From NCBI GenBank assembly GCA_963699545.1, contig CAVOUE010000005.1:320001-384000 (forward strand): DNA of 64,000 nt. Reading direction: 5' to 3'. The notes under the pieces are model-generated. The model saw only the letters and a program-made list of their open reading frames with translations. It searched no databases and was not told where the DNA came from. Made by a program: the position numbers and the translations under genes. Positions 1-29,137 of the stretch are shown here, one piece after another (position 1 is the stretch's first letter; every line of letters begins with the position of its first letter). The stretch comes from Nitrospirota bacterium (GTDB lineage Bacteria; Nitrospirota; Thermodesulfovibrionia; Thermodesulfovibrionales; UBA9159).

Positions 1-611
1 TCGCCGGGACCTTCAACCGTATTCTCAAGAAGGAAGCCCTCTCCGACCCTCTGAGGGAAAGGCTGAATGACCTGATGCTTGAGGCGGAGAAACTCGACAT
101 CATTGTGAAGGACTATGAGACCATCCTGAAGGGCAGACAGGTCATGTTCAGGGTAGAGGACCTGAACGAGATTGTGAAGAGCGTTCTTCCGCTGGTGGAA
201 AGCGAACGGAAAGATAAGGGCATCGCAATAAGACTGCTCCTCTCCGATACGTCTTCACAGTGCGTGGTGAACAGGCAGCTCATCAGGGTTGCAGTGCTCC
301 ATGTGTTGAAAAACGCCGTCGAAGCCACGCCTGCCGGTGGCACCATACTCATAACGACGTCCTCTGACGAGGACACCATATCCCTCAGCATCTCAGATAC
401 GGGCAAGGGGATCCCGGGGGAGGAAATACCGAAGATATTCAGTCTCTTTTACAGCACCAAGAAGCACCGGATAGGAATGGGATTGCCTCTGGTGAAGCAG
501 ATACTTGAGGAACACAAAGGCGCTATCACCGTGGAAAGTGTCCTCGGAAAAGGGAGCACCTTCCGGATCGCCCTCCCGGTCAGGTGGTCGGAGCAGGAAC
601 TCAAAGGGTGA
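1..611 (+). CDS. Sensor histidine kinase, C-terminal HATPase part (5' end outside window)
   Basis: N box (LKNAVEA), G1 (DTGKGI), F box (IFSLFYST) and G2 (GMGL) motifs; frame open to window start. Confidence 0.85.
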   Translation, partial: AGTFNRILKKEALSDPLRERLNDLMLEAEKLDIIVKDYETILKGRQVMFRVEDLNEIVKSVLPLVESERKDKGIAIRLLLSDTSSQCVVNRQLIRVAVLHVLKNAVEATPAGGTILITTSSDEDTISLSISDTGKGIPGEEIPKIFSLFYSTKKHRIGMGLPLVKQILEEHKGAITVESVLGKGSTFRIALPVRWSEQELKG

Positions 612-859
612 GAAGAATGATATGAGGATATGCTGCAAGGCAGAGGGCGGAAAAACACAGGCCCGGCCTGAGAAAGGAGGAACGTACAGACTAGGGCACT
701 ATGACCACGACCTATACGCAAATCGCTCGGCATCAGGAAGGCCTTTCGACGATCTACCGGGAACCGTCTTCTCCCACGTCACGGAAGACCGCCTCTCAAA
801 AGAAACCGGCAGTCTACTGTCGATCCTTAAAACCCATGTAATGCCAAAAGGAGGATGCA

Positions 860-1924
860 ATGGAACCGATGTCAGTTCATTATGATTTTTCGTTCCCTAC
901 TGAAAAGACCAGGAAAACCGCTCACGTCCGTGAGGAAACAGACCGCTATTTTACTCTTCTGGAGATCGCCACTGCCCGGCTCAACAGAGAACTGGAGGCC
1001 CTCGAAAAACGGTGCTCTGACCCGTCAGAGCATGCCGAGGAACTTCTCCGCGCCACAGAAAAGGCGATCGACACTGCACTCGCTTCCTGTGCAGCATTTG
1101 AGGAAGGGGTAAAGGATGGGGACGTCATCCGCAATGCGCGAATTACCTTCCGTGAAAGAACGAATCGTCTCCTTTCAAAAAGTTATTGCCTGAACCGGAC
1201 AAGAACCTGGCCTCAGGGATCACAGGGTGACTACAAAACGCTGGATATCATCTACAGAAACACACCGATGTCCGACGGCATAGGATATTATCTTGACAGA
1301 TACATGCTTTCTGCGCCGCTCGCCACTGGAGTGCGAGAGAGAATCGCAAAACTGGAAGAACTCCTCAGGGAGGAACTCGTTTGCAGACAGGCCCCAAAGA
1401 TCCTTGACGTAGCATGTGGCTCATGCCGCGAGGTTTTAGGGTTAGTCCCGGAAATCGAGGCGTCAGGAGCTCAGTTTACCTGCATCGATCTGGATTCGGA
1501 AGCCCTTGATTTTGCGATGAATCGCCTTTCATACGCCGGTTTCCGGGAAGGACAGGTCGAATTCCTCAGATACAACGCGCTCAGGATGTTCGATCACGAA
1601 ATGAACATGCAGGAATTCGGGATGCAGGACATCATTTACAGTGTGGGCTTCTTTGATTACCTTCCCGATGACTTCCTCACAAAATTGCTCAGTGCTCTCT
1701 ATCTGCTCCTCAAGCCAGGGGGAAAACTCATAGCTTCCTTTAAGGATGCAAACCGTTACAAGTCCCAGCCATATCATTGGCTGGGTGACTGGGATGGTTT
1801 CCTGCAGAGGAATGAGACTGACTTTAAGCGCATCCTCTCTGATGCCGGGATTCCGCACTTTGCACGAGCAGAGGCACGTGTAGAATCGGGAACGATAATC
1901 TTTTACACAGTGACCAAACAGTAA
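860..1924 (+). CDS. Class I SAM-dependent methyltransferase, PhcB-like (fatty-acid methyl ester signal synthase family, tentative)
   Basis: SAM motif ILDVACGSC and YSVGFFDYL; upstream WPQGSQGDY resembles the PxGYxGD motif I recall from PhcB-like proteins; RBS AAGGAGG. Confidence 0.7.
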   Translation: MEPMSVHYDFSFPTEKTRKTAHVREETDRYFTLLEIATARLNRELEALEKRCSDPSEHAEELLRATEKAIDTALASCAAFEEGVKDGDVIRNARITFRERTNRLLSKSYCLNRTRTWPQGSQGDYKTLDIIYRNTPMSDGIGYYLDRYMLSAPLATGVRERIAKLEELLREELVCRQAPKILDVACGSCREVLGLVPEIEASGAQFTCIDLDSEALDFAMNRLSYAGFREGQVEFLRYNALRMFDHEMNMQEFGMQDIIYSVGFFDYLPDDFLTKLLSALYLLLKPGGKLIASFKDANRYKSQPYHWLGDWDGFLQRNETDFKRILSDAGIPHFARAEARVESGTIIFYTVTKQ

Positions 1925-1955
1925 GAGTTTATTGCGGATTATACTATAATACCTC

Positions 1956-2717
1956 ATGGCAGACAGGGGATTGCTCTCTGATAGGGTAGCCATCGTCACC
2001 GGAGGAACGCGGGGCATAGGACGCGCGGTCGTCCGCGCGCTCTGCGGAGAAGGCGCAGACTGTGCGTTCACCTATACGAAGAGCCACCAGCTTGCGGAAT
2101 CTCTGGTTCAGGAGATGCAGCTCACGGGCAGGCGCATGCGCGCCGTGCAACTTGATGTGAGGGATTTTGAAGGCGCCAAGCTACTCGTCGAACAGGTGAA
2201 AAAGGAACTTGGAAGGCTTGATATTCTTGTGAACAACGCCGGGATTACGCGGGACAGGTCCCTCATGACGATGACGAGGGAGGAATGGACCGAGGTGATC
2301 GATACGGACCTCACTGGGGTCTTCAACATCACCCGCGCCTGCATCATCACCTTTTTGAAACAGAAGAGCGGGAACATAGCGAACATTTCATCGGTGGGCG
2401 GGATTCATCCCCTTCCGGGACAGGTAAATTATGCTGCGGCAAAGGCAGGGGTGATCGGTTTCACGAAATCACTTGCGAAGGAGGTGGCGCGTTACAATAT
2501 CAGGGTAAATGCGGTTGCCCCCGGCTTTATCGAGTCAGATATGACAGCAGCCCTCGACGGGAAATACCGGAGGCGTCTCCATGAATCGATACCCGCCGGA
2601 AGGTTCGGAACACCCAATGAGGTCGCAGAGGCGGTGCTCTTTCTGCTCAGCGATGAATCCGGGTATGTTACGGGAGAGGTAATAGAGATCGACGGAGGAC
2701 TGGGACTTTCAGGTTAG
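1956..2717 (+). CDS. fabG: 3-oxoacyl-ACP reductase (SDR)
   Basis: TGGTRGIG, NNAGITRD and YAAAK motifs. Confidence 0.9.
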   Translation: MADRGLLSDRVAIVTGGTRGIGRAVVRALCGEGADCAFTYTKSHQLAESLVQEMQLTGRRMRAVQLDVRDFEGAKLLVEQVKKELGRLDILVNNAGITRDRSLMTMTREEWTEVIDTDLTGVFNITRACIITFLKQKSGNIANISSVGGIHPLPGQVNYAAAKAGVIGFTKSLAKEVARYNIRVNAVAPGFIESDMTAALDGKYRRRLHESIPAGRFGTPNEVAEAVLFLLSDESGYVTGEVIEIDGGLGLSG

Positions 2718-2718
2718 C

Positions 2719-3955
2719 ATGGAGAAAAAGATCGTTGTCACGGGCATAGGAGTTTTATCGCCTATCGGCATAGGCAGGAATAGTTACTGGGAAGCCCTGC
2801 TGCTGGGGAAACCAGGATTTAATCCTATCACCCTCTTTGACACATCGCCGTTTAATGTGCGTATCGCGGGCGAAATAGGCGATTTCGATCCTGCTGAATT
2901 CCTCGGCAAGAAAGGACTTCGCGAACTGGACAGGAGCGCGAGGCTGATATGCTCGGCCGCAAAGCTTGCCATTGATGATGCCCATCTCCAGGTGACGGCT
3001 GAAAATACCCATTCTGTGGGAGTCTCTATTGGAACAACCTTCGGGAGTCTCCACAGCATCTCAGAGTTTGACCGATCCGGTCTCATTGAAGGCCCGAGGT
3101 ATGTAAACCCGTCCCATTTCCCCAATACGGTCCTTAACTCGCCCGCGAGCCGGGTATCGATACGTTTTCAAATAAGGGGCTTTAATACGACCATTTCCAC
3201 GGGATTCTGCGCTGCCCTTGACGCCGTCTCCTATGCGTGTGACTTCATCAAATTGGAGAGGGCGAACGTCGTTCTCGCTGGGGGAGTTGAAGAGCTTTGC
3301 GAGGAAACCTTCCTCGGTTTTTATACCCTCGGGTATCTCTCGGGGATTGATGCCTCACCTCCTGTGAGCTGTCCGTTTGATGCGAGGAGGAATGGGATAA
3401 TTCTTTCCGAGGGTGCAGCGATACTGGTGCTCGAAGAAGTTCAGCATGCTCTGAACAGAGGTGCGGAAATCCTGGCAGCAGTAAAGGGTTGTGGAAACGC
3501 CTTTGACGCTTCGGCGAACGGGGATTTCGGGCACGGGAGAAGAGGTCTGAGAAACGCCGTCACTCGTGCACTGAGCGATGCAGCCCTTTCTCCAGAGGAT
3601 ATAGACTATATTTGCGCCGGTGCCAATTCCACAAAAGAACTTGACAGAGCGGAGAACTGCGGTGATCAAAGAGGTCTTCGGCAACCATGCCTATTCGCTG
3701 CCTGTGAGTTCGATAAAATCCATGGTGGGAGAGTCCTTCTCCGCCTCAGGTGGGCTGTCCCTGGCAGCTGCGGCGGGGGTCCTGCACAGCGGATTCATTC
3801 CTCCCACGATACATTATGAGCAGAGTGACCCTGAATGCGACCTCGATTATGTCCCCGGTGCTGCGAGACGGAAAGAGGTCAAGAATGTTCTTGTGCTCGC
3901 GTCCGATCCTTACGGGAATAACTCAGCCATCGTGCTGGGCAGATATGAACGGTGA
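2719..3955 (+). CDS. Ketosynthase-like protein lacking catalytic residues (chain-length-factor-like); one frameshift near 3650
   Basis: FabF fold split over ORFs 2719-3819 and 3620-3955; STGFC, GANST and GES replace STAC, HGTGT and GH. Confidence 0.8.
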
Positions 3956-3958
3956 ACC

Positions 3959-4402
3959 ATGCAACTTGACTTCGAAGAGATAAAAAGACTGATACCACAG
4001 AGATTCCCTTTCATTATGATCGATAAAGTGCTGGAACTCGAGCCCGGCAGGAAGGCGGTATCGGTAAAAAACATTTCGGGCAATGACATCTTCTTCCTCG
4101 GTCATTTCCCCGACAAGGCGATTATGCCCGGTGCCGCGATCATAGAGGCCATGGCACAGACAGCGATAGTCCTTTTTGCAGCCGCAAAGGGGAACGAAGG
4201 GACTGATGCGAAACCCCTCTACTATTTTGGGTCTGTGAAGGCACGTTTTCTCCATCCTGTAGTTCCGGGCGATCAATTAAAAATAACCGTAGTGAATGTT
4301 AAAACACTCCCGCACGGCGCATATGTCTCGGCAGAGGCATTTGTCGATGGGAAAAAGGTCTCAGAAGCTGAACTTGTGTTTAGCACGAAGGGAGAAGCGT
4401 AA
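3959..4402 (+). CDS. fabZ: 3-hydroxyacyl-ACP dehydratase
   Basis: IPQRFPFIMID and FFLGHFP..IMPG..IIEAMAQ motifs. Confidence 0.9.
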   Translation: MQLDFEEIKRLIPQRFPFIMIDKVLELEPGRKAVSVKNISGNDIFFLGHFPDKAIMPGAAIIEAMAQTAIVLFAAAKGNEGTDAKPLYYFGSVKARFLHPVVPGDQLKITVVNVKTLPHGAYVSAEAFVDGKKVSEAELVFSTKGEA

Positions 4403-4432
4403 TCTTTTTTGCACCTTTTTCAGGAGGAGATT

Positions 4433-5293
4433 ATGTCGGATGAAAACAAAGTAGCGCGCAATATAATAAAAAGCTATTCTGAGAACATAGGATTCATGGT
4501 CTATACAGCAGAAGAACTTCAAAAATTGTACCAGACCCTGGGGATAGATCCCAAAAGCACGAACAGAAGCATCTTCGACCTCGAGAGCATGTCACACCAC
4601 CTGCAATCGGAAGTTATAAAGTTGATCAAAATGATGAATATCACGAAAGATGATGTAGTCTTGGACGCGGGATGTGGGAATGGAGCCCCGACAAGGCTCA
4701 TCGCCAAGACCTGTGGTTGCAAAATCAGGGGATTCGATATCAATCCTGATCAGATCAAAAAAGCGGCGGCATGTAACCGTTTCCAGGGTGTGGACCATCT
4801 CATAGCACTGTCGGTCAAAGATGTGCATGAAGTGGATTACCCCCACTGCACATTCGATAAGGTTTTTCACAACGAAACGATCTGTCACTGGATGGACAAA
4901 CGGACCGCATTATCAGGGCTGTTCAATGTGCTGAAAAAAGGCGGCATTATGGGTTTTCATGACTGGGCAAAAGGAGAAAAAGGAGATCTTAATGAGGCCG
5001 GCGGCGACTTTCCCGGGACGTACGCTGAAAGTGTGTGGTTTCAGCACAGCATTGAAGAGACGCGGCGATTATTAGAAGAAGCGGGATTTTCCCTGCTTCG
5101 CTCTGAAGATACAACTGATATCGTGGATCGAGGACTACGGGCCAAATTAAGAGAATTGGAGATGTCAAAAGATTATTACATAAGAAGCGGTTATGAGGAA
5201 TATTTCTTAAAATCAGTGCGCTATTGCAACATCATGCTTAAAACCCACTATGACTATCTGAAATATGGAAGATTTTTGTGTATGAAAAATTAG
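4433..5293 (+). CDS. SAM-dependent methyltransferase (sterol/tocopherol/cyclopropane-synthase-like fold)
   Basis: VLDAGCGNG motif; RBS GGAGGAG before ATG 4433. Confidence 0.8.
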   Translation: MSDENKVARNIIKSYSENIGFMVYTAEELQKLYQTLGIDPKSTNRSIFDLESMSHHLQSEVIKLIKMMNITKDDVVLDAGCGNGAPTRLIAKTCGCKIRGFDINPDQIKKAAACNRFQGVDHLIALSVKDVHEVDYPHCTFDKVFHNETICHWMDKRTALSGLFNVLKKGGIMGFHDWAKGEKGDLNEAGGDFPGTYAESVWFQHSIEETRRLLEEAGFSLLRSEDTTDIVDRGLRAKLRELEMSKDYYIRSGYEEYFLKSVRYCNIMLKTHYDYLKYGRFLCMKN

Positions 5294-5313
5294 AACATAA
5301 CGATGACCAAATC

Positions 5314-6525
5314 ATGATAAAAACTCGACGAATAGTGATAACAGGATTAGGGGTCATATCTTCAATCGGTATCGGTTGGAAGGAATTCTGGAATAGTCTT
5401 TTGAAGGGTACCTCAGGCATAAGTCCCGTGTCCTCATTCGACACTTCACTGTATCCCACACATTTCGGCGGCGAGGTCAAAATCTTCAAACCCGAGGAGT
5501 TTATCGCTAAAGAACGCTTAAACGTCATGAACCGCGCTACCCAGATGGCGCTGGCTGCTACAAAACTCGCATTAAAGGATGCTGCCCTGGCCCCCGAAGA
5601 GTTGGCAAACTACAACGTTGGGGTCTCTCACGGAACGACACTCGGTGCTGCGCAGACCATAGAAGAGGTAGATGTGCTCCTCATTGATAAGAAACCGATA
5701 GATAAGCGGGTCTTCTGTCAGATGCCGACACATGCGCCGCCCTCCGTGATAGCCACCGAATTTAAATGTGGCGGACCGAATTTCATGTTCTCTACAGCCT
5801 GCGCAGCAGGAAATTATGCGATCGCTTATGGCTTTGACCTCATCAGATTGAATAAGGCCGACATCGTGATTGCGGGAGCGTCAGATCCTTTTTCGCGGAT
5901 TGAATACACAGGCTTTAATCAATTCTCCGCGGTCGCTCCTGAAAAATGCCAGCCCTTTGACAAGAACAGAAAAGGCATGATGCTGGCGGAAGGAGCTGGG
6001 ATACTTGTCCTCGAACCTCTCGAGAGTGCCGCAAAGAGAAACGCGCCTATCTATGCCGAAATTCTGGGATATGGCCTGAGCTGCGACGCCTTCCATATGA
6101 CGACTGCCACTGTTGAAGGAATTGCGGAGTGCATGCGAAAGGCAATGAGAGAGGCGGGCATCGCGGTCGGGGACGTCGACTATATAAGTGCCCATGGTAC
6201 GGGAACAGTGGCAAACGACAGAGTTGAATGCGCAGCGATTAAAGAGGTCTTCGGACCTCGTTCTCAACAGGTACCAGTGAGCTCTATCAAATCCATGCTC
6301 GGCCATACAATGGGAGCGGCATCAGCAATCGAAGCAATCACCTGTGCCCTCGTTGTAAAGCATGACGTCATTCCACCGACCATAAACTTTGAGACTCCCG
6401 ATCCCGAATGTGACATCGACTGCGTTCCGAACAAGGCACGGCACCACACCGCCCATATAGCCCTGAACAACTCTTATGCGTTTGGAGGGAATAACGCTTG
6501 TCTGGTAATAAAAAAACTTGTATAA
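5314..6525 (+). CDS. fabF: Beta-ketoacyl-ACP synthase II, catalytically intact
   Basis: STAC, HGTGT and GHTMGAA give an intact Cys-His-His triad. Confidence 0.9.
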   Translation: MIKTRRIVITGLGVISSIGIGWKEFWNSLLKGTSGISPVSSFDTSLYPTHFGGEVKIFKPEEFIAKERLNVMNRATQMALAATKLALKDAALAPEELANYNVGVSHGTTLGAAQTIEEVDVLLIDKKPIDKRVFCQMPTHAPPSVIATEFKCGGPNFMFSTACAAGNYAIAYGFDLIRLNKADIVIAGASDPFSRIEYTGFNQFSAVAPEKCQPFDKNRKGMMLAEGAGILVLEPLESAAKRNAPIYAEILGYGLSCDAFHMTTATVEGIAECMRKAMREAGIAVGDVDYISAHGTGTVANDRVECAAIKEVFGPRSQQVPVSSIKSMLGHTMGAASAIEAITCALVVKHDVIPPTINFETPDPECDIDCVPNKARHHTAHIALNNSYAFGGNNACLVIKKLV

Positions 6526-6613
6526 TAGGTCAGTTATAAAGTTCATTATAAGGTTTTGTTAAACATTTATCTGGTAACATTTTAAAATTACAGGGATTCA
6601 GGAGGATACGCTG

Positions 6614-6850
6614 ATGGCTGACGTCGAAAGTGAGATCATCTCGATAATATCCGAGGTCTCAGGGGTAGATGTTGAAGAAATTTCGCTTGATTCCGACCTG
6701 GCGAGTGACCTGGAGATCGACTCGATCAAGGCCATCGAGATTGTCGTGGCGATCGAAAAAAAATTTAAGATTTCGATTCGTGATGAAGATATCCGCAACA
6801 TCACCACGACAAGGCAAATAGTGGACCTAACAAGAACTTTGTTTCCCTAG
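6614..6850 (+). CDS. Acyl carrier protein
   Basis: Acidic 78 aa protein; DLEIDSI phosphopantetheine Ser motif; RBS AGGAGG. Confidence 0.9.
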   Translation: MADVESEIISIISEVSGVDVEEISLDSDLASDLEIDSIKAIEIVVAIEKKFKISIRDEDIRNITTTRQIVDLTRTLFP

Positions 6851-6970
6851 GGAAGGTCTCATTGAATTCTCACAAGGAGAGCTTGCATGAGCACGGTGAT
6901 ACCCGTATACTGACCTCTGTACCGAAAGAGATTTTTTGACAACGTAGCTTAACAGAATAATCATTATGGT

Positions 6971-9139
6971 ATGGGAAAAGATACCTACATAAAGCAGGAA
7001 CTTCTCAATTTGACAAGATTCTGGCTGACCTTCGGTCTCATTGGAGGGGCCCTCGTCTTTGCCTTGCTCAGCGCCCTCGATTATTTGGTCACCCCGGAGA
7101 ATTTCTTGAGATTCTTGCTTTATAGAATAACCTGTGTCTGCTTAATGATTGTTCTCCATTTCATCAATAGAAAAGTCTCGCGGGAACTCACCCAAAAGAT
7201 ATTAATTGCCTTAACCGTTATTCTCGTGTCATCGACAGTAGAGCTTATGATTCTCTTTTTTGGAGGTCATCAGTCAACGTACTATGCAGGCATTATCATC
7301 ACGGTCGTTTTTTTACTTGGGATTCTCCCCCTTCATTTTAAAATGTCCTTTTTTTTGGTATCCATTGCTTATTCTATTTACCTTTTTCCGATCTTGCTCT
7401 TTGACCGTATTACGAATGTCGAATTATTTATTAGCAACAATGCATTCTTGCTGGCTATTGTTATGATCGCCCTTACATGGAGATTCCTTAGCCAGAGAAG
7501 CCTCATAAATGAACTTGGCCTCCAATACGAACTTGATAAAGATAAACGCGAACTCGAAAAGTATTCCACCAACCTCCAAGAATTAGTCAGTGAGCGGACA
7601 AAGGAACTGAACAAATCCGAGACCATGCTGAAGGCGCTCTTCGAAAATGCAAATGACGGGATCATGATCATGAACAGGGACGGTATAATACTCGACGTGA
7701 ACCAGAAGGCATGCGACATCCACGGGTTCGACAGGGCCGCTCTCATCGGAACGAATATCAAGCTTCTCGAGACCCAGGAAAACCAGCATTCATACAGGGA
7801 CCGTATGGAACGCATCGTGAACGGTGAGTCGCTGCTCTTCGAAACCCAGCACTACCGGAGGGACGGGACCAGGATCTCGCTCGAGATCAGTTCCAAGGCG
7901 GTAGAGGTCGAAGGCAACACGTATATCCAGTCATTCCACAGGGACATCACCGAAAAAAAGAGGCTCCATCAACAGCTTTTCCAGTCTCAGAAAATGGAAT
8001 CCATCGGGGTCCTCGCAGGCGGCATCGCCCATGACTTCAACAATATCCTGTCCGCCATCCTCGGTCACGCTGAGCTGTTGCATGAATTCAGCACTCTTGA
8101 CGCCCAGGGGAAAGAGAGGGTCAGGATCATAGAGAATTCGGCGCGCAAGGCCGGCCAGATGATATCGAAGCTCCTCAGTTTTGCCCGCAAGGGAACCTTC
8201 GAAAGCGTGCCCATAGATCTCAATGACATCGTAAAGGATACCGCCGAGCTTCTGGAGCGTATGATGACAAAGAGAAACGTTGCGATCAGAATGGACATCA
8301 GCGGCACCCTGCCTCCTGTTGAAGGTGATGCAAACCAGTTGGAGCAGGTCGTCATGAATATCATCGTGAATGCAGGGGATGTAATGCCGAACGGTGGCGT
8401 TATCACCGTTGCGACCTCCTCAGTGGACCTTCAGAGGGATGCCCGCCAGGTTCATCCCCTCCTGGAGCCGGGGAAATATGTGGTCATCAAGATCACGGAC
8501 ACGGGCCCCGGCATCCCTGAGGAAATACGGGACAAGATCTTCGACCCGTTCTTCACGACCAAGGGTCCGGGAAAAGGCACCGGCCTTGGGCTCGCCATGG
8601 TGTACGGCATCGTGAAAGAGCATCGGGGAGTGATCAACGTGAGGACAAAGCTGGGAAGAGGCACCACGTTCGAGATCTATCTGCCGGCGTCCGGCAAGCT
8701 CATCCCGCGTCTGGAACGTCCTCTTGTCTCTTCCGTGGCGGGACGCGAAAAGATACTGGTGGTGGATGACGAAGAAGACATTGTCAGTTTCATAAAGGAT
8801 GTCCTGGAATCGCAGGGATATAAGGTGCTGGCCACGACAAATCCGGTGTATGCGCTGGATATCTTCAAGGAAATAAACGATACCATAGACTTGGTCATCT
8901 CCGACATAATCATGCCCCTGGTGAACGGAAGAGAGCTCATCGGGCATTTTAAATTGATCAAGCCTGCCGTCAGAATATTGGCGATCTCGGGCTACGAAGC
9001 GGGAACCATCGGTAAGAACGACCGGGACATCAACGGATTTATCAGAAAACCCTTCGAGGGCACTTACCTCCTCACTGTGGTGAGAAGGGTGCTCGATACA
9101 GCGGGTGCTTCTTCCTCACCACGGCGCATGCCTCTCTAA
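6971..9139 (+). CDS. Hybrid sensor histidine kinase (about 6 TM, PAS, HisKA, HATPase, REC)
   Basis: Hydrophobic N-terminus, PAS domain, GGIAHDFNN H-box, FFTTK..GTGLGL, receiver ILVVDDE. Confidence 0.92.
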   Translation: MGKDTYIKQELLNLTRFWLTFGLIGGALVFALLSALDYLVTPENFLRFLLYRITCVCLMIVLHFINRKVSRELTQKILIALTVILVSSTVELMILFFGGHQSTYYAGIIITVVFLLGILPLHFKMSFFLVSIAYSIYLFPILLFDRITNVELFISNNAFLLAIVMIALTWRFLSQRSLINELGLQYELDKDKRELEKYSTNLQELVSERTKELNKSETMLKALFENANDGIMIMNRDGIILDVNQKACDIHGFDRAALIGTNIKLLETQENQHSYRDRMERIVNGESLLFETQHYRRDGTRISLEISSKAVEVEGNTYIQSFHRDITEKKRLHQQLFQSQKMESIGVLAGGIAHDFNNILSAILGHAELLHEFSTLDAQGKERVRIIENSARKAGQMISKLLSFARKGTFESVPIDLNDIVKDTAELLERMMTKRNVAIRMDISGTLPPVEGDANQLEQVVMNIIVNAGDVMPNGGVITVATSSVDLQRDARQVHPLLEPGKYVVIKITDTGPGIPEEIRDKIFDPFFTTKGPGKGTGLGLAMVYGIVKEHRGVINVRTKLGRGTTFEIYLPASGKLIPRLERPLVSSVAGREKILVVDDEEDIVSFIKDVLESQGYKVLATTNPVYALDIFKEINDTIDLVISDIIMPLVNGRELIGHFKLIKPAVRILAISGYEAGTIGKNDRDINGFIRKPFEGTYLLTVVRRVLDTAGASSSPRRMPL

Positions 9140-9158: not shown

Positions 9159-10461
9159 TTAGAGTTTTCTCCTGTCGACAACGCGCTTCGCCTTCCCCTC
9201 AAACCGGTCGAGGGTCTTCTTCTCGACCAGTTTCACGTCAACGGCAATGCCGAGTTCCGAAGAGAGCCTCCTCCTGATGAGGCCAACCAGTTCGCTCTGT
9301 TTCTTCATCTCGTCAAAGAATATGGACTCCGACACCTCAACAAGCACCGTCACATCGTCAAGGGCTCCCCTCCTGTCCACGATGATCTGGTAGTGGGGCT
9401 CCGTTCCTTCGATATCGCAGAGCACGGTCTCGATCTGGGAGGGGAAGACATTCACTCCCCGTATGATGAGCATGTCATCAGTCCTCCCCATCACCCTGGA
9501 CATCCTCATGAACTTCCTGCCGCAGGCACATGGGTCGGGCATCAGCCTCGTGAGATCCCTCGTCCTGAACCGTATAACAGGGAACGCCTCTTTTGTGAGC
9601 GTCGTGATGACCAATTCACCGATTTCCCCCGGGGCCACAGGTTCCAGGGTGTTGCGGATCAACCACCTCCACAAGGAAGTGGTCTTCGTTGATGTGAAGT
9701 CCGTTACGCTCAAGGCATTCGCCTGCCACGCCCGGACCCATGACCTCGCTCAGGCCATAGTTGTCCGTTGCCATGATCTTCAGTCTTGCCTGTATCTCCT
9801 GCCGCATCCCCTCGGACCATGGCTCTGCTCCGAAAAGTCCGTACTTCAGGGAAAGCGAATTCACATTGATCCCCATGTCCTGTATGGTATCGGCGATCAG
9901 GAGGGCGTAACTGGGGGTGCAGATCAGGGCCGTGGTCTTGAAGTCCTGCATGATCTTCACCTGCCGCCTCGTGTTGCCGCTGGAAATGGGGATGACCGAT
10001 GCACCGACTCTCTCTGCGCCGTAATGCAGGCCGAACCCGCCGGTGAAAAGACCGTACACCGAAGGCTATCTGGACCACATCGTCCTTTGTGATCCCTCCG
10101 GCAGTGAGGACCCTCGCCACAAGGTTCGACCATGTCTTTATATCGTTTTTCGTATATCCGACCACCGTCGACATCCCGGTGGTGCCGGAGGAGGCATGGA
10201 TCCGTACCACTTCCCTTAAGGGTACTGCAAACAAACCGTAGGGATAGTTGTCCCTCAGGTCGTCCTTCTGTGGTGAACGGAAGATTCCTGAGGTCGCTTG
10301 AGCGATGTGAAGTCATCGGGGTCTATCTCCAGCTCGTCAAACTTCTTCCTGTAGAAGGGAACGTTCAGATACACCCGGTGCAATGTGGATTGGAGCCTTT
10401 CCAGCTGGAGCTGTTCGAGTTCTTCCCGTCCTATGGTCTCATATTCAGGTTCCCAATACAT
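9159..10461 (-). CDS. paaK: Phenylacetate-CoA ligase, several frameshifts (probably assembly indels)
   Basis: Pieces 10255-10461, 9710-10234, 9616-10059 and 9159-9713 carry [18 protein letters not shown] and [16 protein letters not shown]. Confidence 0.85.
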
Positions 10462-22648: not shown

Positions 22649-23629
22649 CTACCACCTGATCAGCGCGGAGGCCCAGGTGAGACCGCCGCCGAAGGCCTCC
22701 AGAAGCAGGTAATCGCCATTCCTGACCTTCCCGCCCTTCACCGCCTCATCGAGGGCAATGGGAATAGAAGCCGCTGACGTATTCCCGTATCTGTCGAGGT
22801 TGATCATCACTTTTTCCATGGGGAGACCCAGCCTCCTGGCCGTGGCCTGTATTATCCGGAGATTGGCCTGGTGGGGTATGAGGAGGGCGATGTCCGAGGC
22901 CTTCAGTTTGTTCTCCTTCAGGCTTTCCACCACAAGACTCTCCAGAGTCCTCACCGCCACCTTGAAGGTCTCGTTCCCCTTCATCTTGATAAAGTGAAGC
23001 CTTTTCTTCACTGTCTCCTTCGAAGCGGGATTCCTGGACCCGCCGCCGGGTGTGTGAAGCAGCTCCCACAAACTTCCGTCAGAATGGATCTTTGTCGAGA
23101 CGATGCCACGGTCTTCTTCCGTTGCCTCAAGCACAACAGCACCTGCGCCGTCCCCGAACAGAACACAGGTAGTCCTCTCTTCCCAGTCAGTGAACTTCGT
23201 GAGCACCTCGGCCCCCACTACAAGGATCCTCCGGTATGTCCCGCTCAGTATATAGGCATTGGCAACGGAAAGACCGAAGATGAAACCTGAGCATGCAGCA
23301 TTCACGTCAAAGGCGGCCGCCTTTTTCGCCTCCAGTTTATCCTGAAGGATACAGGCAGTTGCAGGCAACGGCATATCCCCCGAAACCGAGGCAACAATGA
23401 TGAGCTCTATATCCTTCGCCTTGAGGCCGGCGCTCTTCAGAGCCGCTCTTGATGCTCCAAACGCGAGATCTGACGCGGCCTGTTTTTCGGTAGAGATCCT
23501 CCGTTCCTTGATCCCTGTCCTCTCGATAATCCAATCGTCCGACGTGTCCACCATCTTTTCGAGGTCATGATTGCTGAGGATGGTCTCCGGCACGTATGAA
23601 CCTGTTCCGATTATCCTAGCCCTGAGCAC
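22649..23629 (-). CDS. fabH: 3-oxoacyl-ACP synthase III
   Basis: AACSGF, PHQANLRI, GNTSAAS. Confidence 0.95.
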   Translation of the reverse strand: MLRARIIGTGSYVPETILSNHDLEKMVDTSDDWIIERTGIKERRISTEKQAASDLAFGASRAALKSAGLKAKDIELIIVASVSGDMPLPATACILQDKLEAKKAAAFDVNAACSGFIFGLSVANAYILSGTYRRILVVGAEVLTKFTDWEERTTCVLFGDGAGAVVLEATEEDRGIVSTKIHSDGSLWELLHTPGGGSRNPASKETVKKRLHFIKMKGNETFKVAVRTLESLVVESLKENKLKASDIALLIPHQANLRIIQATARRLGLPMEKVMINLDRYGNTSAASIPIALDEAVKGGKVRNGDYLLLEAFGGGLTWASALIRW

Positions 23630-24626
23630 TCTTCCCTCCGCTCTTTATTCCCTCCCTGATGATCTCATGCACCTTCTTTCTCGAGAACTCCGCGGCAGCC
23701 TTTATCGCATTCCTGATGGCCTTCGCGGAAGACCTCCCGTGACTGATAATACAGGTTCCATTGATCCCGAGCAACGGCGCGCCCCCGTATTCGGCATAAT
23801 CTGTCTTCCTCCTGAAATTCCTGAGGGCAGGTTTCATCAGGAGATACCCTATACGACCGGTCGTTATGTCTGCGATCTCCCTCTTCAGCATCTTCAGGAT
23901 CACCTCGGCAAGACCCTCGCTTGTCTTAAGCACGATATTTCCGATGAAACCATCGCAAACCACCACATCGGCGTGCCCCGTGAAGATATCCTTGCCTTCG
24001 ATGTTCCCTATGAACCGTATCCCGCCATCTCTGAGCAGCTTGAACGCCTCTTTCGTGAGCACGTTGCCCTTGGTATCCTCTTCCCCGATGCTCAGGAGCG
24101 CGATCTTCGGCTGAGGATTGTTCAGCATGGTCTTGCAGTATGCATCACCCATGAGTGCGAACTGGAGGAGGTTCTCGGGACTGCAGTCCACATTGGCGCC
24201 TGCATCGATCAGCACAAAGGGGCCTTTGATGGTGGGCATCATGGTAGCAATAGCGGGTCGGTGGACGCCCTCGGAAGTGCCGAGCATGAAAAGGGCCATC
24301 GCCATAGCAACCCCTGAATGGCCTGCGCTCACCACGGCGTCGGCCTCACGGTTCTTTACCAGCTCGATCGCCCTTTTGATGGAAGAATCCTTCTTTTTTC
24401 TTATGGCGGCGACGGCAGGTTCATCCATCCCCACAACCTGCGACGCATGCCGGATATAAAGCCTGGTCGGCGGGTACCTCTTACCGGAAAGTTCCCTCTT
24501 TATCGAAGGTTCATCGCCCACAAGGGCGATTTCGATATCTTCACTTTCATTGACCGTCTCAACTGCGCCCTCGACAGTAACCGCAGGGGCAAAGTCACCC
24601 CCCATCGCATCAAGAGCAATTCTCAT
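23616..24626 (-). CDS. plsX: Phosphate acyltransferase
   Basis: ALDAMGGDFAP and CDGFIGN..LKTSEG. Confidence 0.95.
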   Translation of the reverse strand: MRIALDAMGGDFAPAVTVEGAVETVNESEDIEIALVGDEPSIKRELSGKRYPPTRLYIRHASQVVGMDEPAVAAIRKKKDSSIKRAIELVKNREADAVVSAGHSGVAMAMALFMLGTSEGVHRPAIATMMPTIKGPFVLIDAGANVDCSPENLLQFALMGDAYCKTMLNNPQPKIALLSIGEEDTKGNVLTKEAFKLLRDGGIRFIGNIEGKDIFTGHADVVVCDGFIGNIVLKTSEGLAEVILKMLKREIADITTGRIGYLLMKPALRNFRRKTDYAEYGGAPLLGINGTCIISHGRSSAKAIRNAIKAAAEFSRKKVHEIIREGIKSGGKSAQG

Positions 24627-25653: not shown

Positions 25654-26739
25654 ATGAGTAAGATCAAGGATGACACAGACAGTATCTGGACCAGTCTGGC
25701 GAAAAAGGGGGTAACCAGAAGGGACTTCGTCAAGTTCTGCACGGCCATGGCCGCCACCCTGGCCCTTCCCTCGAGCTTTGTCCCGAGGATCGTCGAAGCC
25801 CTCGAGAAGAAGCAGAAACCCTATGCGGTCTGGCTTGAGTTCCAGGATTGCTGCGGGGATTCCGAATCCATGCTTCGGGCAACGAAGCCGACCATCGCAG
25901 AGGTCGTTTTGGACGTCATCTCCCTTGAGTACCACGAGACCATCATGGCGGGTTCAGGAAAACAGGCGGAAAAGGCCCTCATGGACGTGGTCAAGAACCA
26001 GAAAGGCAAGTATATCGCCATCGTCGAGGGAGCGATCCCCATGAAGGACGGAGGGATTTACTGCACCATCGGCGGCAGATCCGCACTTGACATTGCCAAG
26101 GAAGTCTGCGGGAATGCGGCCATGACACTGGCCGTGGGATCATGCTCCAGCTGGGGAGGAATTGCCAGCGCAAAACCTAATCCCACAGGTGCGGTCGGAA
26201 TAGGGGCTGCGGTCCCCGGCATCACCTATGTGAACCTGCCCGGCTGCCCGATGAACGTCGAGAACGTGACTGCCACCGTGGTCCACTACCTCACGTTCGG
26301 CTCTCTGCCCGCCCTTGATGGCGAGCACCGTCCGCTTTTCGCCCATGGAAAGATCATTCATAATAATTGCGAGAGAAGGCCGCACTTTGATGCAGGCCAG
26401 TTTGTGAGGAAATGGGGCGACGAAGGGCACAGAAAAGGCTGGTGCCTCTATGAGATGGGCTGCAAGGGGCCCGAGGCGCACTTTAATTGCCCCACGATAC
26501 GGTGGAACGGAGGAACGAGTTGGCCTGTACAGGCAGGACATCCCTGCTTTGCATGTGCCAGCACCAACAACTGGGATGCCTTCGGACCTATTTACAGCAG
26601 GCTTGAGAACGTGCCGGGAGCCGGATATCAGACCACTGCCGACAAGATCGGGGCCACTGTTGCCGCAGTTGCAGCAGCCGGTGTGGCTGCGCATGCGGTG
26701 ATCCGTGCAGCAAAAGGGAAACCGGACAAAGAAGAGTAA
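25654..26739 (+). CDS. hyaA: Group 1 [NiFe]-hydrogenase small subunit (Tat-exported, C-terminal membrane anchor)
   Basis: TRRDFVK Tat motif; DCCGDSES, GSCSSWGG, PGCP, HNNC, CLYEMGCKGP, HPCFAC; terminal TM helix with His. Confidence 0.95.
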   Translation: MSKIKDDTDSIWTSLAKKGVTRRDFVKFCTAMAATLALPSSFVPRIVEALEKKQKPYAVWLEFQDCCGDSESMLRATKPTIAEVVLDVISLEYHETIMAGSGKQAEKALMDVVKNQKGKYIAIVEGAIPMKDGGIYCTIGGRSALDIAKEVCGNAAMTLAVGSCSSWGGIASAKPNPTGAVGIGAAVPGITYVNLPGCPMNVENVTATVVHYLTFGSLPALDGEHRPLFAHGKIIHNNCERRPHFDAGQFVRKWGDEGHRKGWCLYEMGCKGPEAHFNCPTIRWNGGTSWPVQAGHPCFACASTNNWDAFGPIYSRLENVPGAGYQTTADKIGATVAAVAAAGVAAHAVIRAAKGKPDKEE

Positions 26740-26768
26740 GAATAAAAACGATAGAAGGAGGCTAGAGC

Positions 26769-28478
26769 ATGGCAAAAATAGCGATTGATCCCATCACACG
26801 GATTGAAGGACACCTGAGGATCGAGGCACAGGTGGACGGCGGCAAGGTCACTGATGCATGGTCATCCGGCACCATGTGGCGAGGCATCGAGATCATTCTG
26901 AAAGGGAGGGATCCGAGGGAGTGCTGGGCGCTCACCTCGCGAATATGAGGGGTCTGAACAACGGTCCACGCACAGTGCTCCGTGAGAGCCGTGGAAAATG
27001 CCTTAGGGATTACGATAACCGATAACGCAAGGATCATCAGGAACATCATCAATGGTATTCAGTATGTTCAGGACCATGTAATACATTTCTATCACCTGCA
27101 CGCCCTTGACTGGGTCGATGTGGTCAGCGCCCTGAAGGCCGACCCCGCAAAGACAGCGGCCCTTGCCCAGTCCATTTCCGACTGGCCGAACTCTTCACCG
27201 ACTTACTTTAAGGCGGTCCACGGAAAGGTGAAGACGCTTGTAGAGAGCGGTCAGCTCGGCATCTTTGCCAGCGGATACTGGGGACATCCGGCATACAAGC
27301 TTCCGCCTGAGGCGAATCTCATGGCGGTTGCCCATTATCTGGAAGCCCTGGACTGGCAGCGTGATGTAATAAGGATGCAGGCGATGCTCGGCGCCAAGAA
27401 CCCCCACCCGCAGACGTGGCTGGTGGGTGGTATGGCCATCCCCATTGACCCCAATAGTCAGAATGCCATCAACGCAGGAAGCATCGCCCTCATGAAGGAC
27501 CTGGCGAAGAAGGCCCTTGCCTTTGTTGAGAAGGTCTATATCCCCGATCTCCTCGCGGTTGCGTCCTTCTATAAGGATTGGGCGGCGATCGGTGGCGGTG
27601 TGGGGAATTATCTCTCCTACGGCGAGTTCCAGAACGACAATGTGAGCAATACCACAAACGTCTGGCTTCCTGGTGGAGTCATCAGGAACAAGAACCTGGC
27701 CAAGGTCGAGCCCGTTGACCAGAAGCAGGTCACTGAAGACGTTGCACATGCCTGGTATAAATATGCGGACGGTGATGACAAGGCAAAGCATCCATGGGAC
27801 GGCGAGACCACCCCCAACTATACCGGTCCGAAACCGCCCTATGAATTCCTTGATACCAATAAAAAGTACACCTGGGTCAAGGGTATCCGGTACAACGGAA
27901 TGTCCACCGAGGTGGGGCCGCTTTCGAGGATGCTCATCGCGTACGCATCGGGACATAAGCGTGTCAAAGAAGTTGTCGGGCTTGTGCTCAGCAAATTGGG
28001 CGTCGGGCCCGCCGCATTGTTCTCTACCCTTGGCCGCACCGCTGCGAGGGGCATAGAGACCCTTGTGACCGCAGAGATGCTCCCGGTCTGGATCGATGAC
28101 CTGGCGGCCAAGATCAAGAGCGGAGATATTCGTATCCATAATAACGAGAAGTGGGACCCGTCCACCTGGCCGAAGGAGGCAAAAGGGTTCGGCTTCCACG
28201 AGGCACCCCGCGGTGCCCTTGGCCACTGGGTAGTGATAAAGGACGGTAAGGTCGCCAACTACCAGTGTGTCGTCCCGGGCGGGTGGAACTCTTCCCCCAG
28301 AGATGCAAAGGGTCAGAGGGGCCCGTACGAAGCAGCTCTTATGGACACCCCGATCAAGGACCCCAATAAGCCGCTGGAAGTCTTGAGGACGATCCATTCC
28401 TTCGACCCGTGCATGGCGTGTGCGATCCATGTAGTAGACACCAACATGGATGAGATCATAAAAGTCAGGGTGGTATAG
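26769..28478 (+). CDS. hyaB: Group 1 hydrogenase large subunit, 569 aa, with two in-frame TGA codons (codons 60 and 63, putative selenocysteines) at the L1 motif
   Basis: ATG 26769 after [21 protein letters not shown] and RI(TGA)GV(TGA)TTVH are in frame with ORF 26982-28478; L2 motif [11 protein letters not shown] plus a cleavable tail. Confidence 0.92.
26961..26995 (+). promoter_or_regulatory. Candidate bacterial SECIS element(s) immediately 3' of the two UGA codons
   Basis: TCCACG(26965-70) pairs with CGTGGA(26990-95); inner GCTC/GAGC stem with a CGUGA loop; alternative ACGGT/GCCGT stem. Folded by eye only. Confidence 0.5.
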
Positions 28479-28487
28479 GAGGCAGAC

Positions 28488-29130
28488 ATGTTAAAAAAGG
28501 TGTATGTCTGGGAGTTTCCTGTAAGGTTGACTCACTGGCTTAACTTCGTGACGATCCTGACGTTGGCAACCACCGGTTTTTACATCGGCGCTCCCTTTAT
28601 CCGGGCCATCAACGAGGACCAGTTGATCATGGCGCAATTCCGGTTCGTCCATTTCGTGGCTGCGTATGTCTTTGCGGTGAGCGTCCTGGTGAGGATCTAC
28701 TGGTGGTTTGCCGGTAACCGGTATTCACGCTGGAACCAGTTCTTGCCGGTGAGCTCTGAGCGGTGGGAGAGCTGTATCGAAACGACCAAGTTCTACTGTT
28801 TTGTCCGTCAGAAATTTCCTGACGTTGCGGGACATACCGGGATCGCGGGAATAACCTATTTCGTGATGTTCATGCTCTTCCTCACCGAGATCGTCACGGG
28901 GTTTGCGCTCTACTCACAGAGTCATGTGGGAAGCTTGTGGACGCGTGCTGGGAGGCTGGCTCTTTGTGATACTCAACCAGGGCGCGGTGCGGCTTATCCA
29001 CCACTGCATCATGTGGGTTATCGCTGTTTTCCTTATCCTCCATATCTACATCGGGTGGCACAATGACATGATAGAGAGGAACGGCCTTATGAGTTCGATC
29101 TTCAGCGGATACAAGTCTCTGAAGGAATAA
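28488..29130 (+). CDS. hyaC: Hydrogenase b-type cytochrome subunit, frameshift near 28945
   Basis: VWEFPVRLTHW, RFVHF, and RLIHH..LHIY in the second frame. Confidence 0.9.
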
Positions 29131-29137
29131 AGGGATA

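Follow-up and report, generated by a model that had tools for sequence, protein, structure and literature searches.

A methyltransferase-membrane kinase pair with an anammox-type acyl cassette: a candidate lipid-signal module in a Nitrospirota bacterium

Does a single operon of an uncultured Nitrospirota bacterium build an acyl chain, methylate it and sense the product with its own membrane kinase? The question is raised by eight genes within a 64,000-nucleotide stretch of contig CAVOUE010000005.1 (the window). As originally predicted, all eight are co-directional on the + strand, from a methyltransferase gene (MT1, starting at 860) to the end of a hybrid kinase gene at 9139, and plsX-fabH lies elsewhere on the minus strand (PlsX, 23616-24626; FabH, 22649-23629). 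Housekeeping fabG/fabF and fabZ are located on separate contigs of the same genome (C7 and C12). The 248-nt intergenic region ahead of MT1 (612..859, + strand) has no ORF in the MT1 frame, and the open frame upstream of the MT1 ATG comprises only 6 codons. The operon is likely to begin in this region, where the promoter is placed by position only, a pattern scan having yielded no strong match on the + strand.

MT1 and the kinase form a conserved pair. From 401 Nitrospirota genomes, 79 loci with an MT1 match at E<=8.6e-75 were retrieved, 18 of which are cut by the end of a contig or of the fetched region, which leaves 61 judgeable loci. A same-strand kinase is found downstream of MT1 in 59 of the 61 (directly in 21, behind a cassette of fatty-acid-type genes in 38), which indicates that the MT1-kinase pair is the conserved core. 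In these 38 loci the cassette sits precisely in the interval between the two genes, reads in their direction and leaves only short gaps. Two judgeable loci have room for a kinase but lack one; loci L042 and L105 retain MT1, FabG and the ketosynthase partner (CLF) without a kinase. Among 80 metagenome contigs, 8 carry cassette and kinase, 3 carry the direct pair, the remainder are cut and none contradicts the pairing. Five genomes (G087, G103, G184, G200 and G203) each harbour two judged MT1-kinase loci, an arrangement that is usual for cognate signal-receptor pairs.

MT1 (860..1924, + strand) is predicted to be a class I SAM-dependent methyltransferase (PF08242, E=2.3e-10; PF12147, 30.4 bits against a cut-off of 21). 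Although hmmscan gives MT1 these 30.4 bits, PF12147 found nothing in a six-frame search of the genome that contains the window. The protein comprises an N-terminal helical domain of ~175 residues and carries the SAM motif LDVACGSC and the invariant D210, as seen in the sequence and its alignment. The AlphaFold model (pLDDT 94.6) finds its best folds among small-molecule methyltransferases (SgvM, 3ocj) at a TM score of at most 0.52; the nearest structures, which include SgvM, SibL, DnrK and the CurJ C-MT domain, also possess N-terminal helical domains, at low TM. The model thus favours a small-molecule methyltransferase, which we propose as the signal synthase. MT1 belongs to a large family (3502 cluster representatives match it at E<=0.001) and is a short form that lacks a PilZ domain. 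Such a domain is present at the N-terminus in 13 of the 120 homologues among the matches listed, and the KEGG name of PhcB is attached to 13 of the 32 with JGI names (automatic annotation) among these 120. A distant plasmid homologue sits between diguanylate cyclase genes. PilZ domains, PhcB naming and cyclase neighbours would all count as signalling links of the family.

The cassette between the pair resembles a private type II fatty acid line. FabG, a predicted 3-oxoacyl-ACP reductase (1956..2717, + strand; TIGR01830, 302.9 bits, cut-off 297.75), was identified in 28 of the 38 loci whose cassette is followed by the kinase. The next gene (2719..3955, + strand), originally described as KS-like, does not encode a second synthase. 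Its product is a partner subunit that resembles chain-length factors (CLF-like) and is of the amxFabFmut type (top solved match 9s5h_C, 276.1 bits; next, 191.3), in which Phe, Gly and Glu occupy the Cys, His and His positions of the same-locus KS in a by-eye alignment. One extra base near 3655 splits the gene into frames 2719-3819 and 3620-3955, and the relatives have a single unbroken frame. The break could leave the line inactive in this organism; an assembly error is indicated, since several other conserved genes are broken in this assembly. The active ketosynthase is predicted, from its Cys-His-His residues, to be the FabF-type KS of the amxFabF2 type at 5278..6525 (+ strand; NF005589, 402.1 bits against 387), whose best solved match is 9s5h_B (481.7 bits), followed by the ishigamide KS 6kxd (336.8). 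FabZ (3959..4402, + strand; NF000582, 139.1 bits against 113) is assigned to the amxFabZ-type 3-hydroxyacyl-ACP dehydratases: its top five solved matches are the anammox amxFabZ entries 8ayd, 7qv0, 8ayb, 8ayi and 8ayc. The dedicated ACP (6614..6850, + strand; PF00550, E=7.9e-15) has chains 7qv0_D, 9s5i_E and 7auf among its five best solved matches; 7QV0 is the amxFabZ-amxACP complex in the available text of PMC10139942, and 9s5i and 7auf are presumably also of anammox origin. The chain composition and the Val at the catalytic Cys position suggest that 9s5h and 9s5i are structures of preprint 10.64898/2026.05.19.726425, although neither code appears in the available preprint text.

By its nearest solved structures, the cassette is therefore assigned to the type of anammox Cluster I, described in the text available to us as Kuenenia KustE3603-3608 (amxACP, amxFabZ, amxFabF2, amxFabFmut, a phytoene-dehydrogenase homologue and a B12-radical SAM protein). 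KS, CLF, FabZ and ACP have their best or near-best solved relatives there, and both clusters have the dead partner ahead of the active KS. Unlike Cluster I, the window lacks the flavoenzyme and the radical SAM enzyme, and it adds FabG, MT1, MT2 and the kinase. Nitrospirota are not, to our knowledge, known as ladderane makers. The available text of PMC10139942 and of preprint 10.64898/2026.05.19.726425 calls Cluster I unique to ladderane producers, and it reports that amxFabZ and the amxFabF heterodimer favour C6-C8 substrates. In FabZ of the window, Ile70 aligns with the hallmark Ile69 of amxFabZ, and Leu is found at the equivalents of 96 and 115 (compared with the available text of PMC10139942), which points to a narrowed, amxFabZ-type substrate tunnel. 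By analogy with the C6-C8 preference of these relatives, the Ile69 hallmark suggests that the cassette makes a short chain.

The line also resembles type II polyketide synthases (ishigamide Iga11/Iga12, actinorhodin) in its heterodimer of an active KS and a triad-less partner. Its solved matches include 6kxd and 1tqy, which score much lower than the anammox pair (for KS, 336.8 against 481.7 bits). Aromatic CLFs have Gln at the Cys position; the window CLF, in contrast, has Phe.

Between FabZ and KS lies MT2 (4409..5293, + strand), a predicted SAM methyltransferase similar to cyclopropane-fatty-acid (CFA) synthases (PF08241, E=1.4e-17; PF02353 (CMAS), 29.1 bits against 27), the homologues of which are named 'CFA synthase-like' or 'UbiE' by JGI. 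Its GC content is 0.438. MT2 occurs in only 4 of the 38 cassette loci (L046, L070, L073 and L088), plus L177, and the nearest copy is that of L070 (77%). The possible second methylation of the original prediction needs adjusting: as a CFA-synthase-like enzyme, MT2 is likelier to modify a C=C bond than to make a second ester, and it would be the tailoring enzyme of a minority cassette variant. A CrtI-family flavoenzyme, absent from the window, is found in 32 of the 38 related cassette loci, where its gene directly adjoins the 5' end of the kinase gene. In three relatives a B12-radical SAM gene, also absent from the window, stands beside the flavoenzyme; both genes are further points of likeness to Cluster I.

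The gene for the kinase is mosaic in structure. The membrane part (6971..7570, + strand), with six predicted helices, is MASE8-like (E=5.4e-4); the Pfam score lies below the cut-off (20.6 against 26.2 bits), and PF20968 is precomputed on most homologues. The cytoplasmic part (7571..9139, + strand) has a coiled linker and, by Pfam matches, PAS, HisKA, HATPase_c and receiver domains; 'AHDFNN' can be read in its sequence as the H-box and 'ISDIIMP' as the receiver motif. Locus L041, which belongs to the same family and has the same flanking genes, shares 80-81% identity with the window in the kinase core, and the core tree places the two as sisters (support 100). The MASE8 parts, by contrast, share 45% identity and fall on opposite sides of a 99-supported split. 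Both trees come from rapid LG+G4 searches in which SH-aLRT is the sole measure of support. A MASE8 clade that joins the window and L041 is rejected by the AU test (p=2.1e-5), and the nearest MASE8 is that of L070, an MT2-type locus (67-68% identity). The MASE8 part is therefore the exchangeable half of the kinase. GC3 is 0.49 in the MASE8 part versus 0.70 in the remaining gene; a deficit of at least 0.15, a threshold picked post hoc with the data already seen, occurs in 20 of 27 cassette loci versus 3 of 18 direct-pair loci, and may partly reflect membrane-domain composition.

Across the cassette loci, which are related so that distance correlations overstate independence, flavoenzyme distances correlate with MASE8 distances at r=0.68 (0.62 as a partial correlation that controls for the core) and with core distances at 0.43. 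The flavoenzyme shares its history with the sensor domain across relatives. Because the two genes directly adjoin, one recombination tract, without functional coupling, could account for this. MT1 distances follow the core (r=0.88) and scarcely MASE8 (r=0.36, partial 0.14), which argues against a signal module, since co-variation would be expected if MT1 set signal identity.

We give roughly an even chance to the reading that the locus is a Phc-like, self-contained module in which a synthase and a receptor serve one small lipid, and whose specificity part can be exchanged. Gene content, MT1-kinase pairing, Cluster I kinship and the kinase mosaic are observed directly. KS/CLF, FabG, FabZ and ACP would build a short, partly unsaturated acyl chain, which MT2 would alter, most likely by acting on a double bond; the flavoenzyme would take the place of MT2 in most relatives. 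MT1 would then methylate the product, by PhcB analogy to a neutral, membrane-crossing methyl ester that could leave the cell, and the MASE8 domain would bind it inside the membrane and trigger a downstream response. Tailoring enzyme and sensor domain would together constitute the specificity unit swapped between lineages. The central idea of the original prediction, that a single locus would cover every step from building and methylating an acyl chain to sensing it, is partly supported: of 61 loci, 59 show the kinase conserved together with MT1 and the synthase genes. The 21 direct pairs, the two-pair genomes and the independently exchanged sensor further support it. If the reading is correct, an uncultured Nitrospirota bacterium contains an unpublished kind of lipid-signal system; our literature searches found no paper on such an operon.

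Several known systems have a comparable design. PhcB draws on general fatty acid synthesis; most of the present loci, unlike Phc, have their own KS/CLF assembly line. In Ralstonia and Cupriavidus, the signal is methyl 3-hydroxymyristate or methyl 3-hydroxypalmitate; the methyltransferase PhcB produces it and PhcS, a membrane kinase, is its sensor (PMC6989110, in its available text). As in phcBSRQ, the first gene of the present operon encodes a SAM methyltransferase and the last a membrane histidine kinase with several helices. The PhcB-like assignment of MT1 in the original prediction is thus a tentative one, supported by the automatic JGI names only, and a relationship of MASE8 to the PhcS sensor would likewise be putative. 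The present kinase differs in being a hybrid of MASE8 and PAS with a receiver fused to it, and it comes from an anaerobic lineage of Nitrospirota instead of a plant-pathogenic betaproteobacterium. The locus contains no PhcR- or PhcQ-like receiver gene, other response-regulator gene, HPt protein, DNA-binding regulator or transcription-factor gene. CqsA/CqsS (Vibrio), LqsA/LqsS (Legionella) and RpfF/RpfC (Xanthomonas) likewise consist of a synthase and a membrane kinase of several helices to which a small lipid binds, and CqsS and RpfC are hybrid kinases. Their synthases come from unrelated families (PLP-dependent acyltransferase, crotonase).

A different product is conceivable. An unusual acyl chain (methyl-branched, cyclopropanated or ladderane-related) might enter membrane lipids, with the MASE8 kinase monitoring membrane composition and regulating the pathway. 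We regard this as rather unlikely, albeit with a real share of the probability. Anammox Cluster I, home of the nearest solved relatives, is assigned to membrane ladderane lipids in the available text of PMC10139942 and of preprint 10.64898/2026.05.19.726425, and the radical SAM gene beside the flavoenzyme in three relatives completes the anammox gene set. MT2 resembles CFA synthases, which act on membrane lipids, and plsX-fabH, ~13 kb from the kinase in the window, adjoins it in locus L003. However, the 21 direct MT1-kinase loci lack the cassette entirely, and profile matches of its genes reveal no acyltransferase, thioesterase or enoyl reductase in the locus. The C6-C8 chains suggested by the FabZ hallmark and published enzymology would be too short for bilayer lipids, and a hypervariable, lineage-exchanged sensor domain is unexpected in a housekeeping membrane sensor.

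The missing enoyl reductase also fits a pigment or polyene antibiotic, with the kinase as a regulator that answers an outside cue: KS/CLF without this enzyme is a polyene-forming type II layout, the ishigamide polyene ketosynthase is the second-best solved match of KS, and 32 of 38 relatives have the CrtI-family enzyme. Such a secondary metabolite is nevertheless improbable, as long polyenes fit neither the narrow tunnel of amxFabZ type nor the C6-C8 substrates favoured by the nearest characterised enzymes, the locus contains no export, resistance or cyclase genes, and the cassette-free pairs are left unexplained. Those 21 pairs would suit a regulatory MT1 that methylates the kinase or another protein, as in CheR-like adaptation, beside a cassette that is an unrelated insertion, and PilZ, present in many homologues, is typical of signalling proteins. 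We also attach little probability to this option: the nearest folds, at low TM, are small-molecule methyltransferases with N-terminal helical domains, and a cassette placed exactly between MT1 and the kinase in 38 loci fits one pathway better than chance insertion.

The additional kinase originally noted just upstream is present as the 3' end of a histidine kinase gene (3..611, + strand; HATPase_c, E=9.2e-24). A homologue precedes MT1 solely in the same-family locus L041 (69% identity), and this kinase is outside the conserved module. Its portion beyond the window bears a Tll0287-like sensor domain.

The operon under study (860-9139) lies on the + strand in a source genome of 3.04 Mb, which comprises 13 contigs and is 87% complete. 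The ORF listing and the family scans recovered one co-directional + strand run of genes, as originally predicted. The first gene of the run encodes a class I SAM methyltransferase (MT1, 860-1924) and the last encodes a hybrid histidine kinase (6971-9139). Between them are located a 3-oxoacyl-ACP reductase (FabG, 1956-2717), a KS-like ketosynthase partner (2719-3955), a dehydratase (FabZ, 3959-4402), a second methyltransferase (MT2, 4409-5293), a FabF-type ketosynthase (KS, 5278-6525) and an acyl carrier protein (ACP, 6614-6850), all on the + strand. The N-terminus of the kinase comprises about 200 hydrophobic residues, read from the sequence as six helices, which are followed by PAS, HisKA, HATPase and receiver domains. 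The genes plsX and fabH are located at 22.6-24.6 kb of the window, and housekeeping copies of fabG/fabF (contig C7) and fabZ (contig C12) sit on other contigs. The synthase set of the operon is therefore an additional one. A promoter and terminator scan returned counts close to the shuffled expectation, and the operon boundaries are not clear from it. The 3´ end of another kinase is found upstream (3-611), and paaK, a liv-type ABC transporter and iorAB lie on the opposite strand downstream. In the upstream kinase (G000:C5:319123-320611, partly beyond the window), the ORF of a Tll0287-like sensor and that of the kinase appear to overlap in different frames, which may be another frameshift. An ordinary [NiFe] hydrogenase operon, with small subunit, large subunit, cytochrome b and maturation protease genes, occupies 25654-29635.

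The KS-like gene of the original prediction is present in the run, but its product is a partner without the Cys-His-His triad and it is frameshifted in the assembly. The gene is split over two frames (2719-3819 and 3620-3955), where a single extra base at about 3655 parts '...ELDRAE' from 'TAVIKEVFG...', and it is a single frame in all relatives. In an alignment read by eye, Phe, Gly and Glu occupy the positions of Cys, His and His in the KS of the same locus, and the protein is a chain-length-factor-like partner (CLF). Other conserved genes of the window or the genome also appear split or truncated, so an assembly indel is the more likely cause of the CLF frameshift. Only partial or two-frame family-model matches were obtained for paaK, the [NiFe] hydrogenase large subunit, pilT, alaS and the housekeeping fabF. 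The sites of these genes, at window positions 9159-10450 (-), 26762-28478 (+), 43294-44377 and 45042-48120 (+) and at C7:60609-61845 of the genome, suggest an indel-rich assembly, which bears on the reality of the CLF frameshift.

The family of MT1 is large, with 3502 cluster representatives matching at E<=0.001, of which 163 reach E<=1e-30, and it is present in several phyla (ESM Atlas; PF12147-type clusters). Lengths of 426-490 aa are common among its members, and the window copy is the short form; 13 of 120 listed homologues carry an N-terminal PilZ domain. MT1 scored 30.4 bits on PF12147 by hmmscan, although a six-frame search with this model over the window's genome and 14 controls missed it and matched only E. 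coli; the first-look filter of the genome search can skip partial matches. A Foldseek search with the AlphaFold model of MT1 (pLDDT 94.6) returned only generic small-molecule methyltransferases with N-terminal helical domains at TM <=0.52 (SgvM, 3ocj, SibL, DnrK and CurJ C-MT), and we infer the substrate class of MT1 from its genomic context, not from its fold. A sequence search of solved structures matched MT1 only to 3ocj and 1wzn and MT2 to generic small-molecule methyltransferases; the anammox enzyme AmxMT1 (8HD2; PMC9821293) was not among the matches of either.

The sole and indirect pointer to PhcB homology of MT1 is the automatic JGI product name, which is attached to 13 of the 32 JGI-named proteins among the 120 listed homologues. 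No Ralstonia name was found in two cluster look-ups covering 20 representatives of 462-477 aa, and tblastn of MT1 against plasmids yielded distant methyltransferases, with 24-29% identity among the matches listed, mostly from Rhizobium and with a single Paraburkholderia record. The term phcB is absent from the 20 top-ranked papers of a literature search that combined it with Nitrospirota, Thermodesulfovibrio or anammox. The operon resembles the Ralstonia PhcB/PhcS (Phc) system, whose product is a diffusible methyl ester of a 3-hydroxy fatty acid, in that one operon holds both a methyltransferase gene and the gene of a membrane sensor kinase. It differs in that the separate PhcR and PhcQ receivers are absent and the receiver is fused to the kinase. 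The sensor domain of the window's kinase is MASE8-like. No stand-alone receiver gene was detected within 1-9139 or in the 9 kb upstream, and the kinase-fused receiver domain is the only one there.

MT2 falls in a compact family (about 90 clusters, 52-79% identity), most of whose clusters also match the CMAS model, and its homologues are named CFA-synthase-like or UbiE by JGI. MT2 itself scores 29.1 bits on PF02353 (cut-off 27) over model positions 53-243 of 273. These CMAS matches and the CFA-synthase-like naming suggest that MT2 targets a double bond in the chain instead of catalysing a second esterification. A BioC-primed pimelate (biotin) pathway was rejected: on TIGR02072, MT2 reaches 39.9 bits (cut-off 184.95), no BioC match was obtained for MT1, and the window annotation contains no bio genes.

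The close homologues of MT1 occur in Nitrospirota and Thermodesulfovibrionales MAGs, and a match at E<=1e-10 was observed in 96 of 401 Nitrospirota genomes, the window's genome included. For synteny, 79 places with a match at E<=8.6e-75 were fetched; 35 weaker rows (fragments, pseudogene pieces and distant paralogues) were excluded except for four (L057-L060), and some of the 79 loci lie on contigs already present as L002-L009 in the first homologue set, so that the sets are not independent. The kinase follows MT1 directly on the same strand in 21 of the 79 loci and follows a synthase cassette on the same strand in 38. A further 18 run into the end of the contig or of the region fetched, among them L089, where a 5-kb insertion moved the kinase out of range, and two have room but no kinase. 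Co-conservation of the kinase with the MT1/synthase locus, on which the original prediction depended, is thus observed as a shared operon in 59 of the 61 judgeable loci. With 21 of these 59 pairs direct and free of the cassette, the methyltransferase-kinase pair is the conserved core, into which most copies, though not all, have the assembly line inserted. The two loci that lack the kinase (L042 in G040 and L105 in G320) come from one genus and are remnants, in which MT1-FabG-CLF runs directly into housekeeping genes, without KS, ACP or kinase. The genes that follow there are a tRNA U5-methyltransferase-like gene, a poly(A)-polymerase-family gene, a chromate transporter, IMPDH and GMP synthase. 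Five genomes (G087, G103, G184, G200 and G203) each carry two judged MT1-kinase loci. Among 80 metagenome contigs, the cassette with kinase was found in 8 and the direct pair in 3, while the remainder are cut and none contradicts the pairing; the metagenome scan with the MT1 alignment retrieved only close relatives (48-66% identity) and nothing beyond this family. At L053:14127-16302 (G015), a single kinase gene is preceded by MT1 in tandem, with two to three copies of which one is broken.

CLF, KS and ACP are the constant parts of the cassette across its 38 loci, while FabG was undetected in 10 and FabZ in 8. A flavoenzyme of the CrtI/phytoene-desaturase family is present in 32 of the 38 loci and MT2 in four (L046, L070, L073 and L088), which places the window in the minority MT2 type without flavoenzyme. 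Neither the flavoenzyme (at E<1e-8) nor a B12-radical SAM gene was found in the window or elsewhere in its genome. In three relatives, a B12-binding radical SAM gene adjoins the flavoenzyme gene (L083:5438-6772; L089:1318-2700 on the - strand; L101:6105-7415). With this gene, the three loci hold the full anammox Cluster I set (amxFabF2, amxFabFmut, amxFabZ, amxACP, phytoene-dehydrogenase homologue and B12-radical SAM) outside anammox bacteria.

The link to Cluster I was checked by a sequence search of the cassette proteins against solved structures. The best match of KS is 9s5h_B (481.7 bits), followed by the ishigamide KS 6kxd (336.8), and that of CLF is 9s5h_C (276.1 bits; second match 191.3), which has Val at the catalytic Cys position. 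The five best matches of FabZ (8AYD, 7QV0, 8AYB, 8AYI and 8AYC; 125-113 bits) are Kuenenia and Scalindua amxFabZ according to PMC10139942, with E. coli FabZ 6n3p close behind (111.6 bits), and 7qv0_D, 9s5i_E and 7auf are among the five best matches of ACP. PMC10139942 also describes three positions that set amxFabZ apart from canonical FabZ (S. brodae numbering). At position 69, the canonical tunnel Gly is Ile in amxFabZ and Ile70 in the window. At position 96, canonical Lys/Arg is replaced by Ser/Thr in amxFabZ and by Leu98 in the window, and at position 115, canonical Arg/Lys is replaced by Val/Ile and by Leu117, respectively. The two Leu residues align opposite Ser96 and Ile115 of S. brodae amxFabZ and are both non-basic. 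The window thus shares with Cluster I an active FabF homologue with a partner lacking Cys-His-His, and a FabZ with Ile for Gly and non-basic residues at 96 and 115. It differs in the Leu at position 96 and in lacking the phytoene-dehydrogenase homologue and the B12-radical SAM enzyme. The preprint 10.64898/2026.05.19.726425, to which 9s5h and 9s5i presumably belong, shows amxFabF2 and amxFabFmut to be a KS/CLF-like heterodimer that decarboxylates malonyl-ACP and prefers C6-C8 probes over C16. Cluster I is called exclusive to ladderane producers in this preprint and in PMC10139942, and 'Nitrospir' is absent from both. According to PMC11968836, BGC surveys have reported antiSMASH 'ladderane' clusters in non-anammox bacteria, so that a relationship to anammox genes is in itself no novelty. 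Of the relatives known outside anammox bacteria, this cassette is the closest to the enzymes proposed to initiate ladderane synthesis.

The kinase gene itself is a mosaic. Its membrane part matches the sensor domain MASE8 (PF20968) weakly, with 20.6 bits, below the cut-off of 26.2, and most of the 120 listed kinase homologues carry a precomputed PF20968 assignment. L041, a locus of the same family as the window with the same flanking genes (upstream kinase 69% and paaK 87% identical), encodes a kinase that is 80% identical in the cytoplasmic part (core) and 45% in the MASE8 part; identity climbs from 25-55% over residues 1-180 to 80-100% past residue 280. The core tree (50 rows) joins the window and L041 as sisters (support 100). 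In the MASE8 tree (54 rows), a split with support 99 separates the two, and constraining them together is 108 log-likelihood units worse (AU p=2.1e-5). The nearest MASE8 (68%) and the nearest MT2 (77%) of the window are both those of L070, which belongs to another family and has a kinase core only 51% identical. The four mutually nearest MASE8 loci (window, L070, L046 and L052) all lack the flavoenzyme and share one side of a branch with a support of only 45. GC3 is 0.49 in the MASE8 part versus 0.70 in the rest of the kinase gene, and a MASE8 GC3 lower by at least 0.15, a threshold chosen post hoc after the data were inspected, was observed in 20 of 27 cassette loci versus 3 of 18 direct-pair loci.

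Pairwise-distance correlations were calculated over the cassette loci (20-28 per gene), which are related to one another. The flavoenzyme correlates with MASE8 at r = 0.68 (partial 0.62) and with the core at 0.43. The respective values are 0.36 and 0.88 for MT1, 0.31 and 0.84 for FabG, 0.35 and 0.74 for CLF, 0.42 and 0.74 for FabZ, 0.25 and 0.59 for ACP, and 0.38 and 0.46 for KS. Joint exchange of flavoenzyme and sensor thus holds as a pattern in the family of this window. Since the kinase gene has the flavoenzyme gene directly at its 5´ end, the shared history of flavoenzyme and MASE8 may be plain physical linkage. MT1 was rejected as the specificity determinant, its distances following the kinase core and not the sensor.

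A putative signal synthase-receptor module working like Phc is the best-supported reading, and we give it about an even chance. A short acyl chain would be built on the private ACP, tailored by MT2 in the window and by the flavoenzyme in most relatives, and methylated by MT1; the product would be sensed in the membrane by MASE8, with tailoring enzyme and sensor as an exchangeable specificity unit. Several points count against such a module: MT1 does not co-vary with the sensor, no receiver, HPt or DNA-binding partner gene was found near the operon, and the link to PhcB comes from automatic JGI names. The main rival, in which the operon would make a specialised membrane lipid and the kinase would sense membrane state, loses weight through the 21 cassette-free MT1-kinase pairs, the short-chain hallmarks of the cassette and the lack of acyltransferase genes in the locus, and we regard it as rather unlikely. 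Methylation of a protein by MT1 seems less likely still, and a pigment or antibiotic product equally so. Returning to the signal module, a broader proposal is tentative: Nitrospirota may use pherotype-like polymorphic lipid signalling, in which the tailoring enzyme (flavoenzyme or MT2) and the MASE8 half switch together as a dialect cassette, and the anammox 'ladderane' Cluster I core would be a member of the same older short-chain signal-lipid family, not a ladderane-specific invention.

Cell-cell signals of the lipid type are well known from a few Proteobacteria; to our knowledge, the anaerobic, mostly uncultured Nitrospirota have not been studied in this respect. If the reading is true, a conserved synthase-receptor module whose specificity part can be exchanged would offer a new way into the communication of groundwater and sediment Nitrospirota. 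We know of no ladderane producer that is yet genetically manipulable; the simpler homologous line, with five or six genes, could be expressed in a standard host and could reveal the actual products of KS/CLF, the amxFabZ-type dehydratase and the CrtI-type enzyme.

A more distant relative of MT1 (25% identity) was observed on a Roseateles plasmid (L061, NZ_CP084754.1, 489563-491712) between GGDEF/EAL and sensor diguanylate cyclase genes; the partners of the wider MT1 family may include c-di-GMP enzymes in addition to kinases.
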